From the NCBI GenBank assembly GCA_003660975.1, contig QMVG01000001.1, forward strand, positions 96,001-160,000: a stretch of 64,000 nucleotides of DNA, read 5' to 3'. Below, in pieces: positions 40,417 to 46,997 of this stretch. A program made the translations under genes and the position numbers. The notes under the pieces were generated by a model. It had not been told where the DNA came from and searched no databases. It worked only from the letters and a program-made list of their open reading frames with translations. This DNA is from Candidatus Micrarchaeota archaeon. GTDB lineage: Archaea > B1Sed10-29 > B47-G15. Positions within the stretch are counted from its first letter, which is position 1, and each line of letters opens with the position of its first letter.

Positions 40417-41486
40417 TTCCAATAACGAAAAGGGAGCTGAAAGCAATAAGCAGGGAAAAAAGCTTTATACTGCTGATTGTGATAGAATTGCTTTTGCTTC
40501 TCTCATCTAACTTATTCAGTGTGGGTTATTTACTTATCTCTAGTCCTGAGGAAAAAACTGTTGATTTTTCATCGCTTGTCAGTGTTGCTGTTGTTAGCAG
40601 AACGCCTTTTCCCTTTCAGAAGGTCATGGAGAGGACTAGTCTTGCTCTAATATTTTACGATGACTTTGCGAGAGCTCATGGTGACTTTTTAAATGGAAAA
40701 ATTGATGCTATATTGTTTGGAGATATCACATTGAGCAATAAGACAGACACACTAACGCTCTACTTGCCAAAAAATAATCCGAAAATCAACCTAATAAAGA
40801 TGGAGATAAAAGACCTGCTCCAAAACCTAGAGGAGATTGTAAGGACTGATAAGAAAAAAGCCCTGTCTCCTGCATTGACCTTGGTAAACATTGAAAACAG
40901 TGTTCCTTTCAATCCCGCTTCAGAAGTATATTTCATATTTACGCTTCCCCTGCTTTTGTTCTTGCCTTCATTAATCTCAGGCAGCCTGATAATAGACAAC
41001 ATAACAGAGGAATTTGAAAAGAAAACAATAATTAACCTGAAAAAAGCCCCCTTGACAAATATGGAAATAGTATTACAGAAGCTTTTAGCGGTTGTGATAA
41101 TAGCTCTGCTGCAGTGTATCGCCTGGCTTATAATCATCGGGGCCACACAAGTAAAGGTTGAAAACGTCTTTTGGATTGTCTTATTGTTCTCTCTTTACGC
41201 GCTCTTCTTCTGTGTGTTGGCTGCCTCAATAACTTTGAAATTAAAGTCTCAGAAGCTTTCTCAAACTATATTTACTGTGATCTCTCTATTTGCCTTAGCT
41301 ACTTTTTCTCCAGTAATAAGCAAAATAAAACTCTTAGTAGACCTATCGCCTGCTCACTTGATGACAGCTCTCGCTACTGGCTGTAATCTAAATACAGTAC
41401 TGCCAGGCTTCCTGCTATTATTCGTTTTGCTTTTTGCTTCCTCTTTTGCACTCCACTATTCAGTGAAAGAATTAGATAGGATATAA
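40413..41486 (+). CDS. ABC-2 type permease
   Basis: KRELK, ITEEFEKKT..L..AP..., several TM helices; coupled to the preceding permease. Confidence 0.8.
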   Translation: MIPITKRELKAISREKSFILLIVIELLLLLSSNLFSVGYLLISSPEEKTVDFSSLVSVAVVSRTPFPFQKVMERTSLALIFYDDFARAHGDFLNGKIDAILFGDITLSNKTDTLTLYLPKNNPKINLIKMEIKDLLQNLEEIVRTDKKKALSPALTLVNIENSVPFNPASEVYFIFTLPLLLFLPSLISGSLIIDNITEEFEKKTIINLKKAPLTNMEIVLQKLLAVVIIALLQCIAWLIIIGATQVKVENVFWIVLLFSLYALFFCVLAASITLKLKSQKLSQTIFTVISLFALATFSPVISKIKLLVDLSPAHLMTALATGCNLNTVLPGFLLLFVLLFASSFALHYSVKELDRI

Positions 41487-41532
41487 ACTAAGGAAAACAT
41501 AAGAAATAGCCCAAAAATAAAAGGCTATTGGT

Positions 41533-42138
41533 TTATGGGAATAACTTAACGTACTTTCCTAGATATGACGGTGGTGTCCTGAAAGGTATTGCTTCCAGAG
41601 CTCCCTGATTTGGCGTTAGTGTTACTGTAACATCTACTGATGGAGCTATGCCTGATGTCTTGTACCAGAACTCAACGATGTCATTCTGCTTCACTGATAC
41701 TCTTGAAGAGTTAGACAGTGTTGCAGGCTGTCCCAAATAGAGCACTGAGTATGTCTTTCCAGTGACAGTAGATGCCTTAACTGAGTCAACTGTGTTATTG
41801 GTTGACATATTGTAGTAGAGACCACTTGACTGTTCATCTTTAGTGAAGAATTCCATCAATGTAAAGTTAAGGTTCACTTCTGTGCTTCCTGGTGCCAGTC
41901 TCGCGACAATCCTCAGGTAATCTATCTCAGTTGGACTGTCTGCATTGTCTGTAACACCTGTTATTCCTGTTATCCTCAGCTTAGTTGAAACCTCTCCTGT
42001 TGATTCCTTTCCTGTTTGCAGTGCCTGTCCTTCTAGTGAGCCTACTGTTTGCAGCAATACCATAGCTGCCACAGCTGCCACTAGAATCATGGCAATGAAT
42101 ATTATCAGGACTCCTATTCCTGATATAGCTCTCTTCAT
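41533..42138 (-). CDS. flaB: Archaellin (archaeal flagellin), copy 1
   Basis: Class III signal MKRA/ISGIGVLIIFIAMILVAAVAAMVLLQT..SL..QA.QTG.E...EVS; LAPGS..VNL. Confidence 0.92.
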   Translation of the reverse strand: MKRAISGIGVLIIFIAMILVAAVAAMVLLQTVGSLEGQALQTGKESTGEVSTKLRITGITGVTDNADSPTEIDYLRIVARLAPGSTEVNLNFTLMEFFTKDEQSSGLYYNMSTNNTVDSVKASTVTGKTYSVLYLGQPATLSNSSRVSVKQNDIVEFWYKTSGIAPSVDVTVTLTPNQGALEAIPFRTPPSYLGKYVKLFP

Positions 42139-42152
42139 CTTTCATTCACCTC
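41998..42152. repeat. 155-bp near-identical direct repeat with 45386-45540 (archaellin 5' ends plus leader)
   Basis: Only 2 mismatches by direct comparison. Confidence 0.9.
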
Positions 42153-42227
42153 TGATTAGCTGTATGCTTATAAAAAAAGAACACCTTTTTAAAGCTTACC
42201 TTTAAATGTTCTGTAAACTTGTTGTTG

Positions 42228-42316
42228 GCATAACATATGGCATTATCCGAAGTTGGGTGTAAGCCCAATTTGGACGAAGGCAACTTGTTGCTGAAGTCGT
42301 TTAATGCCTGTTATAT
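42228..42316 (+). other. attC-like recombination site 1
   Basis: GCATAAC...GTTATAT ends, GGCATTA/TAATGCC stem, two internal hairpins. Confidence 0.5.
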
Positions 42317-42546
42317 TCTCTGAGCGTAAGCGAGGACGAGGAAAGCGAAGCTTTCCGAAGAGTTTGCCCCCGAGCGTTTTTTAAAATAAGAAGTGCCAGC
42401 CTAAATATTTAAAAATTAAGGATCTCAACCAAAAGTATTATTAAACAGTTGGAAACCAGTTTCACATACATAATAGTTAAGGTGTTTCATTTAATGGATA
42501 AGCAGAGCCACTAGAAGTGACTACTAAATGAAGGAGGTAAAAGAAA

Positions 42547-43143
42547 ATGAAGGGTGAAATGAGAAACAGGTTGGCTCTGCTTAGCGTCCTCCTAGTAGGG
42601 GGGTTGTTAATGGCAGGTATAGGAACAGCTATGGGAGCAGGGGGTCTGCTGAAATTTGCTGGAAAGCAAGTCAGCGCAGTGGCAATGAACGACCAGTTAA
42701 AGATATATGAAGATGGCAAATTGGTAGAGGAAATTACATTGCCAAAAGGAGAATATAGTATAGAAACATCAGGACATAAAATAGTATTTCGAAAGATGAC
42801 TAAAGAAGAGATTGCAAAAGCGCAGGCAGAACACGAAAAGGAGATGGAGAAGTGGATTGAAATAGTCAATAAAGACAGCAGAATACAGGAATTAACCAAT
42901 GGAAAAAGCGTACAGTCTAAAGAGGTAGTCAGTGCAATAACAGGCAATGGAGATGAAATAATCCTAATGGTAAAAGTTGAAGGCAGATACTACAAGATTG
43001 CAATAGATCTGAACAGCGAAACAGTGAAATCAATGGAGGAGAAAAGCTCTGCTGTGATGGAAAACTGTTATGGGTCAGATGGACCAACAGATTGTAGCGA
43101 ATTGCCAGCAACAGCAAGATATTGGAGCAGGGTGCATAAATAA
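42547..43143 (+). CDS. Hypothetical secreted/membrane-anchored protein (element cargo)
   Basis: SD AGGAGG; N-terminal signal-like hydrophobic segment; 198 aa. Confidence 0.8.
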   Translation: MKGEMRNRLALLSVLLVGGLLMAGIGTAMGAGGLLKFAGKQVSAVAMNDQLKIYEDGKLVEEITLPKGEYSIETSGHKIVFRKMTKEEIAKAQAEHEKEMEKWIEIVNKDSRIQELTNGKSVQSKEVVSAITGNGDEIILMVKVEGRYYKIAIDLNSETVKSMEEKSSAVMENCYGSDGPTDCSELPATARYWSRVHK

Positions 43144-43176
43144 GCACCCTTCCTTTTATTTTAGGAGGAATAGAAA

Positions 43177-43671
43177 ATGAAAAGCAAAAAAATTCACGGA
43201 AGAACGGTATTCATGGCAGCTCTATTTGTGGCTTCAGTATTCGTGCTTGGAATAAAATTGCTGAATCCTACCCCAGTACAGATTTTTATAGAAGGTCAGA
43301 ATACAGCAATTACCCAAATTCCAGGATTTTTCACATTTTTGGATGTGATAATTCTAATTGTGGCATCAATCACTCTTGCCATTAGCGGAATGTATTTGTT
43401 ATTCTTTGATTCAGTTGAAAAACCTGCTGGTGGATTGGTACTTGAGGAAAGAAAAAAGAGATGGGAACAAATAGTAAAAACATTGAAATCTGATGAGCAG
43501 AAAATTTATAAGGCAATAATTGGTTCAGACGGAATTATAGAACAAAGTGAACTTCCAGAAAAAACAGGACTTTCGAAGGCAAGTGTTAGCAGGGCTTTAG
43601 ATTTATTGGAAAGCAGAGGTTTGGTTGAAAAAAGGAGAAGGGGAATGGGGAATATTGTTTTGCTGAAATAA
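43177..43671 (+). CDS. Membrane-anchored winged-HTH transcriptional regulator (element cargo)
   Basis: Two TM helices, then LKSDEQKIY...QSELPEKTGLSKASVSRALDLLESRGLVEKRRRGMGN. Confidence 0.85.
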   Translation: MKSKKIHGRTVFMAALFVASVFVLGIKLLNPTPVQIFIEGQNTAITQIPGFFTFLDVIILIVASITLAISGMYLLFFDSVEKPAGGLVLEERKKRWEQIVKTLKSDEQKIYKAIIGSDGIIEQSELPEKTGLSKASVSRALDLLESRGLVEKRRRGMGNIVLLK

Positions 43672-43729
43672 TTGGGTAAAAACCGAACAAATCGAAAGTA
43701 TTTTAAAGAATATATAGGGTAATTAATTT

Positions 43730-44575
43730 ATGATGAAAACTAAAAACCGGAAACAAATTATAGTTTTGGTTGGTGGCATTTTGGTAGGCATTGTTACAGG
43801 CACAATAATAACTGCACACCATTTTGGACAGATGGGGGGAAGAGCTTTCCCTGAATTTATTTTTTGTGGAACTTCCGGTATTTTAATTGCGAGCATAATT
43901 AAATATTTAGTTGACAAACGTAAAGGAATAAATACCACCACTTCTAAGCTTATACTTGCAGTTAGTCTCTGTATAATAGTTGGTTTGTTGATTGGTGCGG
44001 GTATTGGCTATCATTATTTTTTCAAGCTAGAGGCTACTCCAAGTAATGGGCAATCTACAAAAATAGAACCAACTAAAGAAATGGTTGAAAAGATAGTCTT
44101 TTACGAAAAGGGTAAACAAGAAATTATAGACCTGAAATCTGAAGATGGAAAAGAAATAGCAAGTTTGCTTACTCGCAAACTTCATGAATTAAATCTACAA
44201 GCAACATGTGTTTTTAGCGAGGAAGATATTCAGGAAATAAAGCAAAAAGACAGAGTTGCAGAGTTAATTTTCAAGAAACCTGTAGATATTACAATTTCTC
44301 AATGGACTGAGCCAGAAGAAAGGTACCATATTCCTGTTGATGAAAAGGGGTACAGAATTTTGGAGAATGTCAAAATTGCTATATTTATTTTGGAAGATAA
44401 TCAAGAAAGAGGATTAGAAGCACATATCTTAGTCGGTCATAGAGTTGAGGGAAGAACAGGCTATAGTTGCTGGGCAATAAATATCAAAGAAGAAGGAAAA
44501 CCAGAATTAGATAAAAGTTGGATTGATAGGATAAACCGGTTAATAAATAAGGCGGGCGCTTCCAACATCTTTTAG
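43730..44575 (+). CDS. Hypothetical membrane protein (element cargo)
   Basis: Three N-terminal TM helices plus a soluble domain; stop 15 nt before the attC-like site. Confidence 0.75.
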   Translation: MMKTKNRKQIIVLVGGILVGIVTGTIITAHHFGQMGGRAFPEFIFCGTSGILIASIIKYLVDKRKGINTTTSKLILAVSLCIIVGLLIGAGIGYHYFFKLEATPSNGQSTKIEPTKEMVEKIVFYEKGKQEIIDLKSEDGKEIASLLTRKLHELNLQATCVFSEEDIQEIKQKDRVAELIFKKPVDITISQWTEPEERYHIPVDEKGYRILENVKIAIFILEDNQERGLEAHILVGHRVEGRTGYSCWAINIKEEGKPELDKSWIDRINRLINKAGASNIF

Positions 44576-44591
44576 CGAGGGGGCAAATTGA

Positions 44592-44649
44592 ATATAACGA
44601 GTATTAAGCGAGATTTTTATTCGCATAATCCCTTAAATTGGAGTTAAAG
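44592..44649 (+). other. attC-like recombination site 2 (58 bp)
   Basis: ATATAAC-GAGTA-TTAAG(C)G(A)GATT...AATCCCTTAA-ATTGGA-GTTAAAG: 5/6-nt spacers, paired arms with unpaired C and A. Confidence 0.55.
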
Positions 44650-44707
44650 CGAAAAAAGCTAAGGAGGTATTCTTATCAAACAGGCAAAGCTTATATCTCG
44701 GTTGTGA

Positions 44708-44808
44708 AAAGGTAAAACACCAGCAGAAGCCGTCGGACTTGATTTAGGATTGAAGCATAAGTGGCATAATTAATTGAATTGGCAACAATTTATCAGGTAA
44801 AAGGTTAA
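44708..44808 (+). pseudogene. C-terminal remnant of a DDE transposase (IS6/IS1-like)
   Basis: KGKTPAEAVGLDLGLKHKWH then frameshifted LIELATIYQVKG*; resembles the GKTPAEAAGI...KW..LI tail of archaeal IS transposases. Confidence 0.6.
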
Positions 44809-44920
44809 CACTTCTTTTTTGATTTCTTACTCAGATTAATTTTTTAATGAATTTACCAACAATAAGTTTACAGAAGCCCTTTAAATGTAAAATTAAAACA
44901 AAATAAAAAGAGGTTTTGAT

Positions 44921-45526
44921 TTAAGGGAACAGTGACACATACTTTCCTTCAAAGGAAGCGGGTGTCCTGAAAGGTATTGACTCTGGCACTCCCTGGCTTG
45001 GTGTCAATGTAACCTTCACTGATGTGCTTGGGTCTATGCCTGATGTCTTATACCAGAACTCAACCATCTCGTTCTTCTTTACTGAGACCCTTGATGAATT
45101 TGATAGAGTTACTGATTTTCCTAGATACAATACAGAGTAGCTCTTTCCTGTTATTGTAGCATTCCTAACTGCTATGATTGAGTTATTAGTTGACATATTG
45201 TATGAGATCCCTGAGGACTGCTCGTCTTTTGTGAGGAACTCCATTAAGGTGTAATTCAGATTGACCTCGTCGCTCCCTGGTGCCAGTCTGCCAACGATTC
45301 TCAAATAGCTTATTTTTGTTGGATTTGCTGCATTGTCTGTAACACCTGTTATCGCTGTTATTCTTAATTTTGAGGAAACCTCTGATGTTGATTCCTTTCC
45401 TGTTTGCAGTGCCTGTCCTTCTAGTGAGCCTACTGTTTGCAGCAATACCATAGCTGCCACAGCTGCCACTAGAATCATGGCAATGAATATTATCAGGACC
45501 CCTATTCCCGATATAGCTCTCTTCAT
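44921..45526 (-). CDS. flaB: Archaellin (archaeal flagellin), copy 2
   Basis: Same class III signal and N-terminal helix as copy 1; divergent C-terminal domain. Confidence 0.92.
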   Translation of the reverse strand: MKRAISGIGVLIIFIAMILVAAVAAMVLLQTVGSLEGQALQTGKESTSEVSSKLRITAITGVTDNAANPTKISYLRIVGRLAPGSDEVNLNYTLMEFLTKDEQSSGISYNMSTNNSIIAVRNATITGKSYSVLYLGKSVTLSNSSRVSVKKNEMVEFWYKTSGIDPSTSVKVTLTPSQGVPESIPFRTPASFEGKYVSLFP

Positions 45527-45738
45527 CTTTCATTCACCTCACTACAGAAGTTAATAGCATAATTGAGGCAGCATTAATAAATCTTTCGCTGGAAAACAGA
45601 CATTTCAGGCAAATCTTTTTATAGTCTTTTGCCCTCTTTACAACAGTGGAATTTTTATAAAAAAATAGCTTGGCTTCTTCACAAATTTCTGTTGCTTAAT
45701 CAAAAACATTATAAAGCTCTAATGCCTTTTTTCACGCA

Positions 45739-45860
45739 GTGGAGAAATCCACAGAGAGATAAGTGACCTATATGAAGTGCATAAAGTGATAAAAAAGGCG
45801 GGGAAGCAGGCTCACCCAGCCAAAGGGGTCATTTGTGTGGCTTCCCTGTCCTATCTCTTT
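45739..45860 (+). ncRNA. Candidate structured small RNA
   Basis: TTATAAA box at 45709; GTGGA-GAAA-TCCAC hairpin; stems 45753-61/45852-60 and 45797-807/45840-50 whose GU pairs favour the + strand. Confidence 0.35.
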
Positions 45861-45865
45861 AACTC

Positions 45866-46810
45866 TCATGGGGGCAAATAATTTACTTTTTGTGGGGCCA
45901 GTGTTTTTCTGTAACTGCTCAGTATGACATTTGTTAGAGAATTCTTTACATGAGGAATGCTGAAAAGATTTTGTATAAAATGTTGGTATGTCGTTGTGCT
46001 TCTTGTCATGACCACTGCCAAAAGATTGAAATTGTATGAGATAGATGTTAGGTTGTGAATCTCTGGCCTTTTAGTTAACTCTTCTACAACCTTCTCTTCA
46101 AAACCCGGCTCTACAGAGATAAAAGTAACTGTGTTAAAATTTGTTCCAAGGATCTCGTAATACTCTTGATTAATTAAAACTGTCTTCTTAAGTATGGCTC
46201 TTTCCTTCCACAACCTGTTCCATCTTGAAGAGACAGTATTTCTATGCAATGACAGTTTCTCTGATATCTGTTTTATTGTCATCGGCGGGTTCTCCATTTT
46301 CTCTTTGATAATAAAGTGGTCTTTCTCATCAAGTTCTATTGTCTGCATATCTCCTTCTGACATGCAAATGCCGTGCATCTTATGGGTATCATAAGCAAAG
46401 ATAGAGACAATGGTTGACGCTATGTCCTTTGTCAATTCGCCAAGCCAATTGACAAAATTACGCAAAGCTACAGACGAAGGAAAAAAAGCCTGTATTAAAA
46501 CGTCATAATCTCCGCTTATAAAAAACGCAGCTGTAACAAAAGGGTTTTTCATAAGCTCATTTACAAGTAAGTCCAATGCCTGTGGGGTTATCATTTTCAT
46601 AAGGAAATAAACTACATCGTGATAGCCAAGTTTAAATGGGTTTAATCTATAGGTGTATCCCTGTATTATGCCCTCTCTTTCGTATCTTCGGATTTTATAT
46701 TGCACGATTGCAGGAGACATCCTCAATTCTTTTGCTATCTGCCTGTCTGGCCTTCTCCCGTTGTACATGAGATATCTCAGCAGTTTTACGTCATTTTCTT
46801 TTAACTCCAT
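45866..46810 (-). CDS. Tandem (double) Lrp/AsnC transcriptional regulator
   Basis: Two HTH+RAM units: GRRPDRQIAKELRMS...EREGIIQGY...ISGDYD and LDEKD...QISEKLSLHRNTVSSRW. Confidence 0.85.
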   Translation of the reverse strand: MELKENDVKLLRYLMYNGRRPDRQIAKELRMSPAIVQYKIRRYEREGIIQGYTYRLNPFKLGYHDVVYFLMKMITPQALDLLVNELMKNPFVTAAFFISGDYDVLIQAFFPSSVALRNFVNWLGELTKDIASTIVSIFAYDTHKMHGICMSEGDMQTIELDEKDHFIIKEKMENPPMTIKQISEKLSLHRNTVSSRWNRLWKERAILKKTVLINQEYYEILGTNFNTVTFISVEPGFEEKVVEELTKRPEIHNLTSISYNFNLLAVVMTRSTTTYQHFIQNLFSIPHVKNSLTNVILSSYRKTLAPQKVNYLPP

Positions 46811-46997
46811 ATAACCAGTTAAATTATAATTGAACAAAAATTTAAAGTTGATTTCGTTAATTGTCAAAAAATTTTGATATAATAACATTAAACGCACATA
46901 TTTTTACTTTGTTAATTATGCATATTCTTAGAAGCTATTTTATTGTTTGATTGCTTTTTTATTAGTGGAGGTGATCAAAAGCCAAAAGGTGGATGGC

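Follow-up and report, generated by a model that had tools for sequence, protein, structure and literature searches.

Mobile insertion cassettes combine the ends of an insertion sequence (IS) with passenger genes, and those of the MIC (mobile insertion cassette) type, such as MIC231, a derivative of IS231 (IS4 family) in the Bacillus cereus group, have no transposase and depend on one supplied in trans. Here we describe an archaeal element with the same make-up of IS ends and passengers. It spans 2,671 bp, positions 42207–44877 of the window, by which we mean a stretch of 64,000 nt from a Candidatus Micrarchaeota archaeon (contig C1:96001–160000, accession QMVG01000001.1; assembly GCA_003660975.1, 1.33 Mb, 89.7% complete), and it lies between two tandem archaellin genes. 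We are highly confident that it is a non-autonomous, cargo-carrying derivative of an archaeal IS of the IS6 family. According to the accessible text of a review of that family (Varani et al. 2021, PMC7986276), an 8-bp target duplication is a hallmark of IS6, members are about 800 bp long with one open reading frame (ORF), and the exceptions are two miniature inverted-repeat transposable elements and a single passenger carrier, ISDsp3. With IS6/IS26 our element shares an 8-bp target duplication, and its relatives share with that group short terminal inverted repeats and a PF13610-type DDE transposase. Compared with the IS6 members in the part of the review available to us it is unusual in measuring 2.67 kb, in lacking a transposase, in carrying three passengers and a structured module, and in belonging to a lineage that keeps a fixed distance to the TATA box; the string 'TATA' occurs 0 times in that text. 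MIC231 belongs to another IS family and another domain of life, and ISDsp3 retains its transposase.

IS ends, a target duplication, passenger genes and no intact transposase are what defines a mobile insertion cassette, and because there is no transposase the element is strictly a MIC-type derivative. A transporter IS holds passengers and a functional transposase within one pair of ends; no such transposase lies between the two ends here, and a related element, L204, in which a transposase match covers residues 1–208, comes nearer to this type. A preliminary description, made from the sequence alone, had spoken of a 'transporter IS/mobile insertion cassette'; the name fits, in the strict sense by its second half. 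Passenger-carrying transposons are the main gene shuttles of bacteria and are almost unreported for archaea in the literature that we searched: they are described as not detected in archaea in the accessible part of Krupovic et al. 2019 (PMC6563490), neither 'passenger' nor 'promoter' occurs in the available text of a 2026 survey of archaeal IS (PMC13343696), and our literature searches returned no description of archaeal IS6 cargo elements, archaeal mobile insertion cassettes or TATA-directed insertion. The element, with its empty site and its relatives in many phyla, shows that archaea, including the tiny DPANN symbionts, have such shuttles.

From left to right the element consists of a 22-nt terminal repeat, a structured module, a three-gene operon, about 280 nt with the decayed 3' end of a transposase gene, and the right repeat. 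A repeat search of the window returned a 20-nt inverted repeat at 42209–42228 and 44856–44875 (95% complementary, one mismatch), whose ambiguity pattern has 2 matches in the window and 0 in 100 dinucleotide-preserving shuffles. The 8-nt sequence CCTTTAAA stands on both sides of it, identical at 8/8 positions, so that the 20-bp inverted repeats with one mismatch and the bracketing 8-bp direct repeat of the preliminary description are both borne out. Two nucleotides, TG at the left and GC at the right, separate the duplication from the 20-nt repeat. Since G dominates at these outer positions in the relatives (at −2 in 77 and at −1 in 76 of 92 distinct archaeal ends), we read TG and GC as degenerate outer tips of a 22-nt IS6-type repeat, which the 8-bp duplication then abuts. 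The inner 20 nt of the two ends have 0 or 1 mismatch to the lineage consensus, and the inner flank of the right repeat is closely like an end in a Woesearchaeota metagenome-assembled genome (MAG; L057) that still adjoins transposase coding sequence. The full direct repeat, CCTTTAAATGT, is 11 nt long (42199–42209 and 44878–44888). Ends of the relatives begin GGTTCTG and presumably resemble those of IS257/IS431. As an observation apart, all eight ends of this genome lack GG tips, although the window duplication is perfect and the insertion polymorphic.

The insertion is polymorphic in the environment. Public metagenome runs were used as Logan contigs, and four of them were compared with window 40500–46600; being contigs rather than raw reads they drop rare variants, and uncovered stretches in runs X1–X5 were left uninterpreted. 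In run X3 a 739-nt contig of depth 6.3 connects 42198 directly with 44878 and leaves out the 2,679 nt in between; 11 letters fit both sides. It covers 44878–45540 with 14 differences in 663 nt and continues for 76 nt at 42198 and below. This contig, with its single CCTTTAAA(TGT), is the empty site that the preliminary description had proposed to look for: it comes from a close relative that lacks the element together with one copy of the duplication. Two contigs of run X5 stop exactly at 42207 and 44878. The co-existence of filled and empty sites with flanks about 98% identical argues for recent movement. Transposition through cointegrates is a trait of the IS6 family; what this locus displays is a simple insertion and its empty site. 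Related genomes were of no use for the same comparison because none of 40 matches the archaellin DNA; the genome is the sole member of its family.

The link to IS6 comes from relatives of the ends. When the end pattern TTCTGTNAAYTTRTTGTTGG was scanned against one genome per GTDB species, 112 stretches were returned, mostly from archaeal MAGs of many phyla and groups (Archaeoglobales, Bathyarchaeia, Thermoproteales, Methanosarcinales, Thermococci, an Asgard MAG, and Woese-, Pace-, Aenigm-, Micr- and Undinarchaeota). About 20 bacterial matches stood in unrelated contexts with no shared flanks; they were treated as chance and used as a control. One class of end lies 15–30 nt behind the stop codon of a conserved outward-reading ORF, and a transposase homologue stands beside the end in 23 loci. 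The protein of one such locus, L066, is a match to PF13610 DDE_Tnp_IS240, the IS6-family domain (E 2.6e-18), and L097 encodes an intact 283-aa transposase with an N-terminal Zn finger (CxxC...CxxC motif). The preliminary description had suggested looking for these ends beside an intact transposase elsewhere, and had named IS6, IS1 and IS1595 as candidate families: IS6 is the correct one, given PF13610 genes at like ends and 8-bp duplications. It had also reported no intact transposase within the element. This is correct, and we add a relic that is identical to L066 residues 167–187 at 11/21 positions (E 5e-5 for the element, 0.02–0.04 for the genome). The relic ends 85 nt before the right repeat, where about 90 nt was estimated from the gene layout of L066. 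One weak transposase-like match (E 0.19) was seen on contig C67 of the same genome.

Further copies with other cargo, which the preliminary description had proposed to search for, are present in the host genome. The end pattern occurs there at seven places with ≤3 mismatches, against 0 for a reversed control. Besides the window element, the genome has no fewer than five other ends or elements, with different cargo: a 942-bp element with one DUF4202/HD gene (C3:72610–73551), an end on C5 behind which a DNA methylase and a nuclease-like gene reach to the contig edge, and single ends on C2, C7 and C16. Ends with 4–5 mismatches (26, against 23 for the reversed control) were rejected as noise except for the one on C16, whose inner flank is conserved. 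The cargo trio of the window occurs at no other place in the genome. Elsewhere, L108 carries a gene of the metallo-beta-lactamase fold and no transposase, and L104 a 177-aa ORF that matches no tested family together with a broken transposase. Among six two-ended archaeal elements, a perfect, flush 8-bp duplication is found in three (the window element, L078 with GCTAAAAA and L104 with CTTTTTAA), and the duplication of L105 is 9 bp, GTTTAACCA. At L104 (4430–5890) both outer flanks start with an AGCATC...TTAAAT motif, mutually inverted, perhaps the remains of an earlier insertion there.

Several points weigh against a MIC-type IS6 derivative. The tips here are TG and GC, in a family that has GG at roughly 83% of its ends; with 11 nt the direct repeat exceeds 8, and a duplication alone would be compatible with a site-specific integration core; two of the six two-ended elements (L108 and C3 of the host genome) have no duplication. 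The empty site comes from one contig of low depth (6.3) in one run, assembled rather than seen in raw reads. L097 is without a recognisable left end within 600 bp, the transposase frame of L204 looks interrupted, and the analysis recovered no complete reference copy, one having both ends as well as an intact transposase. Lastly, the 1.33-Mb, 89.7%-complete assembly holds no intact transposase of the family, its only match being the relic inside the element, and for this reason mobilisation in trans is something we infer.

Other explanations fare worse against the same evidence. The repeats are inverted and flank a promoter-proximal segment, and the preliminary description had offered as its alternative an invertible segment bounded by them; in this reading a site-specific recombinase would flip the segment and so switch archaellin or cargo expression. 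A joint to the opposite strand does exist inside the segment, at 42397/44535, in contigs of runs X1, X2 and X5 (depths 210, 230 and 53; host contigs 46–52). It is internal rather than at the repeats, and because a depth of 210–230 is 4–5 times that of the host and the arrangement is that of L204 and L082, it is an L204-type arrangement from other, more abundant copies. At the terminal repeats themselves (42228/44856) no opposite-strand joint was found in four metagenome runs, contigs only; there is no invertase gene inside the element and no recombinase gene in or beside the segment. Inversion does not predict a perfect 8-bp direct duplication and an empty site, whereas transposition does, and we give the invertible segment almost no credence. 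It is very improbable, too, that the locus is an integrative element, be it a small plasmid, a virus or an island, for which a site-specific recombinase used CCTTTAAATGT as an 11-nt attachment core. The length of the direct repeat and the three tyrosine recombinases encoded in the genome would suit such an origin, but the element contains no integrase, its ends are conserved IS6-type repeats found at hundreds of unrelated flanks, and the core was not seen at other insertions among the six two-ended elements, where no core is shared because the duplications of the relatives differ (GCTAAAAA, CTTTTTAA, GTTTAACCA).

Two independent, decayed solo IS ends might by chance flank three resident genes that never transposed jointly as a 2.67-kb unit. 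Pseudo-compound structures are frequent in IS6 elements (PMC7986276, accessible text), and the transposase is reduced to a relic. The ends, however, are inverted and not direct, the unit as a whole stands between identical 8-bp duplications, and precisely this unit and one duplication copy are missing from a contig. The cargo trio recurs inside the IS6 element L204 of other DNA and has no second location in this genome; chance flanking is highly unlikely. A transposed MIC-type derivative remains our reading: the element is real, recently mobile and now non-autonomous. In mechanistic terms, a cognate IS6 DDE transposase supplied in trans would have bound both repeats and inserted the element by an 8-bp staggered cut between the tandem archaellin genes. 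As a single insertion it is ordinary; what is of real interest is the pairing, in its lineage, of the promoter-distance rule and cassette-type cargo.

To look at target choice we scored TWTWWAAA (at least 7/8 match) around the 93 archaeal ends with enough flank. The box starts exactly at −23 from TTCTG in 36/93 ends, compared with 9–13 ends at neighbouring offsets, 0–10 at all others, and only 1/21 at −23 among the bacterial chance matches. This layout corresponds to box, 5 bp, 8-bp duplication and 22-nt repeat. Both kinds of end carry the −23 box (16/41, 9/26 and 11/26). Roughly one of the two ends of an element faces a promoter, and both orientations occur. Positions −13 to −11 at family ends are T-rich; read on the complement they are a purine-rich run immediately before TTTATATA, where one would expect the B recognition element (BRE) of an outward-pointing promoter. 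The window obeys the rule, reading TTTTTAAA-gctta-CCTTTAAA-tg and then TTCTG. From these counts we conclude that the lineage prefers insertion 5 bp upstream of a TATA box. The eukaryotic retrotransposons Ty3 and Ty1 insert at Pol III genes and Tf1 at Pol II promoters. By analogy, the archaeal lineage would likewise keep a constant, small distance to the promoter element that TBP and a TFB/TFIIB-like factor bind, and would spare the coding sequence, although its enzyme context is unrelated to theirs and it belongs to another domain of life. Such a fixed TATA distance would amount to a target choice that spares genes and could rewire promoters.

At the archaellin locus this position is the promoter edge of archaellin 1, as the preliminary description had it. 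The probable TATA box, TTTAAAAA, lies at −55 to −48 from the archaellin 1 ATG. The box-to-ATG distance agrees with the paralogues, of which the genome holds five, two of them flanking the element: TTTATTAA of archaellin 2 is at the identical offset, and two further paralogues have their boxes at −56 to −49 and −60 to −53. The element lies 5 bp upstream of this box, the preferred position of its lineage. Because the 5 + 8 = 13 bp upstream of the box are unchanged, the core promoter (BRE/TATA) appears to survive, yet it would be isolated from sequence further upstream and from archaellin 2, including any read-through from that gene. For the host, an insertion that separates two motility-filament genes at a promoter edge makes a case for a possible change in expression of a surface structure.

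Table 1. Features of the element and its flanks (positions in the window)
Feature	Position	Strand	Evidence or remark
Archaellin paralogue 1, 201 aa, transcribed away from the left end of the element	41533–42138	−	PF01917, E 1.1e-27
Probable TATA box of archaellin 1, TTTAAAAA	42186–42193	−	5 bp from target duplication; sequence-inferred
Left target-site duplication, CCTTTAAA	42199–42206	.	8/8 identical; single copy in empty-site contig
Left terminal inverted repeat, 22 nt, tip TG where family usually GG	42207–42228	+	
Structured left-end module, Y-shaped hairpin, helices P1–P4, AAC...GTT end boxes	42229–42337 (core 42229–42315)	+	Covariance model 57.7 bits, E 5e-13
Conserved GC-rich extension behind module, with small hairpins, e.g. 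GGAAAGC-GAA-GCTTTCC	42316–42397	+	
Cargo gene 1, 198 aa, N-terminal signal or anchor, no family	42547–43143	+	No Pfam family reaches cut-off
Cargo gene 2, 164-aa membrane-anchored winged-helix regulator	43177–43671	+	PF24034 DUF7343, E 7.7e-12
Cargo gene 3, 281 aa, three N-terminal helices and a conserved ~170-aa alpha/beta domain	43730–44575	+	
Relic of IS6 transposase gene 3' end, KGKTPAEAVGLDLGLKHKWHN, then stop codons	44708–44770	+	Matches L066 transposase residues 167–187
Right terminal inverted repeat, 22 nt, tip GC	44856–44877	−	
Right target-site duplication copy, CCTTTAAA	44878–44885	.	
Archaellin paralogue 2, 201 aa, 80% identical to paralogue 1	44921–45526	−	PF01917, E 2.6e-27

The three passengers lie on the strand opposite to both archaellins, as had been noted from the sequence, and form an operon for a secreted or anchored protein (gene 1), a membrane-anchored winged helix-turn-helix regulator (gene 2) and an anchored surface-domain protein (gene 3). 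Gene 1 falls only in archaeal hypothetical clusters of the Atlas; gene 2 is also above the cut-offs of MarR_2 and MarR. A structure model of gene 3 (mean pLDDT, the predicted local distance difference test, of 82) has three helices and an alpha/beta domain, and the domain is predicted to lie outside the cell. Its best Foldseek match in the PDB, YycH, was too weak to suggest a function (E 0.011, template modelling score 0.32). There are 138 homologues of gene 3, many of them 70–94% identical over the C-terminal 170–200 residues, and the few named records are from Diapherotrites, Methanoxibalbensis, Methanophagales, Parcubacteria and Actinomycetia MAGs. Scanning metagenomes with the gene 3 alignment gave 75 loci, with genes 1, 2 and 3 collinear in at least 9; the trio also recurs in cassette arrays of the kind described below. 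In one of the related elements, L204 (786–4547), homologues of all three read toward the left-end module inside an IS6 element whose transposase match (89% identical to L066, possibly interrupted) was mentioned above; its duplication is 7/8, and a TTTATATA box stands 5 bp beyond it. Compared with L204, the window element has its gene block turned round and has lost most of the transposase gene. Gene 3 is a widely transferred cassette gene that in other places, too, stands beside modules and IS6 ends. In runs X1 and X2 the contigs over gene 3 (43764–44579) sum to a depth of 470–860, against 46–52 for the host, so that relatives of gene 3 at 90–95% identity are far commoner in the community than the host itself.

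Directly behind the left repeat, 41/93 family ends have a GC-rich stretch, which in the window forms the structured module (fold −29.9 kcal/mol, z −4.1). P1 is TATAAC/GTTATA; it is followed by a loop of 5–6 nt opposite 1 nt, by P2, a helix of 8–11 bp, and by a branched tip of two hairpins, often with GNRA-like loops. The extension behind the module is shared as well: L151, L152, L157, L165 and L204 match 42308–42397/403 on the opposite strand with 81–84% identity, and in L151, L157, L165 and L204 the match starts right behind the gene 3 homologue. For a covariation test, 26 module copies were aligned with MAFFT and scored against the structure of P1, P2 and the base of P3. Pairing was present in 86.2% of cells versus 34–49% with slid partners, compensatory change in 11/20 pairs versus 4–6 in the slid controls, and 0/500 shuffles reached the observed covariation values; one G-U pair is kept in 20/20 copies. 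T3, A4 and A5 do not vary, C6 is the most frequent letter of its pair (19/26), and TGTT close to the 3' end varies little or not at all. Of the two strands the given one has the more stable folds (sum −594.7 versus −446.5 kcal/mol), and it is the strand opposite the cassette ORFs. RNAalifold on the MAFFT alignment returned only 3 pairs because the variable hairpins were misaligned, and was replaced by per-sequence folds and pair counts. No Rfam family was found in 41900–45200, where the sole row was a chance match to U7 (E 0.43).

The covariance model found no module in 41500–45600 besides the one in the table; a candidate second, degraded module behind gene 3 (44576–44700) was rejected, with a score of 41.5 versus 31.5 +/- 5.9 (maximum 51) for shuffles. 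The model found 11 copies in the host genome, seven of them without an IS6 repeat in front, modules in 4/31 genomes of a phylum sample that included the host, and 43 copies in 87 genome loci. In L112 and L022, units made up of a gene and then an opposite-strand module are repeated in tandem; with crude ORF calls, a convergent ORF stands at the 3' side of the module in 33/47 cases versus a same-strand start in 11; and among the 75 gene 3 loci, 35/36 modules are on the strand opposite gene 3, often on both sides of it. On contig C14 of the host genome, three modules occupy one gap each in a run of co-oriented genes (90 aa; RmuC; 542 aa), preceded by a restriction-modification pair and a tyrosine recombinase. 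The island as a whole (C14:4166–11227, L140) comprises an Xer-like tyrosine recombinase that the contig end truncates, an N6/N4 methylase paired with a BglII-type nuclease, an AAA_5 ATPase and three gene-module units, with every gene on one strand and every module on the other, and it looks like a defence-type, non-canonical integron-like cassette array. Its recombinase, a partial protein, scores 51.5 bits on TIGR02249 against a cut-off of 265 and scores best on XerA. In L165 and L173 the first cassette is preceded, at a distance of a few hundred bases, by an Xer-like recombinase gene. Here (L165:2599–5213, and L173) the order is a housekeeping radical-SAM gene, a 295-aa Xer-like recombinase, a gene 3-family cassette with module and a further cassette, which looks like a complete platform with the recombinase co-directional with its cassettes.

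The closest parallel is the attC site of integrons, an imperfect palindrome with a roughly symmetric unpaired spacer. Like attC, the module is an imperfect palindrome with AAC/GTT boxes as its best-conserved part and a structure kept by compensatory change, and, as in integron arrays, modules stand behind ORFs in co-oriented tandem arrays beside tyrosine recombinase genes, at least in the relatives. It differs in geometry, having a loop of 5–6 nt opposite 1 nt, a branched tip and no canonical R and L boxes with a symmetric spacer; in recombinase, the neighbouring enzyme being Xer-like and, as a partial protein, far below the cut-off of the integron integrase (IntI), an enzyme with an integron-specific extra domain; and in context, since the site in the window is inside a transposon, directly against the left repeat, and is the only one in the element. 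The module thus behaves like an attC site that is non-canonical in geometry and recombinase, and we propose it as a candidate cassette site. Archaeal integrons with canonical attCs have been described (Ghaly et al. 2022, PMC9668308). The available main text of that paper contains neither 'transposon' nor 'insertion sequence', and its supplementary lists might already include sites of the module type. On balance we lean toward the module acting as a DNA recombination site, folded as DNA rather than as RNA.

A cassette-site-like module next to an IS end would link integron-like gene capture and transposition. One speculative scheme, which we rate as possible though rather unlikely, is a shuttle of two tiers, in which an Xer-like integrase from a non-canonical, integron-like system loads and unloads cassettes at the left-end module and the transposase then delivers the whole 5 bp upstream of TATA boxes. 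In such a shuttle the cargo trio, with gene 3, would be loaded cassettes, delivery in many archaeal phyla might read promoter DNA bound by TBP and TFB, and the copy in the window would be a decayed product left standing at an archaellin promoter.

Two minor observations concern the archaellin genes. A contig of run X5 joins 45385 to 41998 and so passes from the body of archaellin 2 into the promoter and the N-terminal region of archaellin 1; 114 letters are shared at the joint. This is probably an assembly path through the two paralogues (41998–42112 and 45386–45500); a recombinant archaellin allele would give the same joint, although an assembly path is simpler. Directly upstream of the archaellin pair, at 45866–46897 on the minus strand, a 343-aa protein with two Lrp/AsnC-type helix-turn-helix plus ligand-domain halves may be the regulator of the pair.

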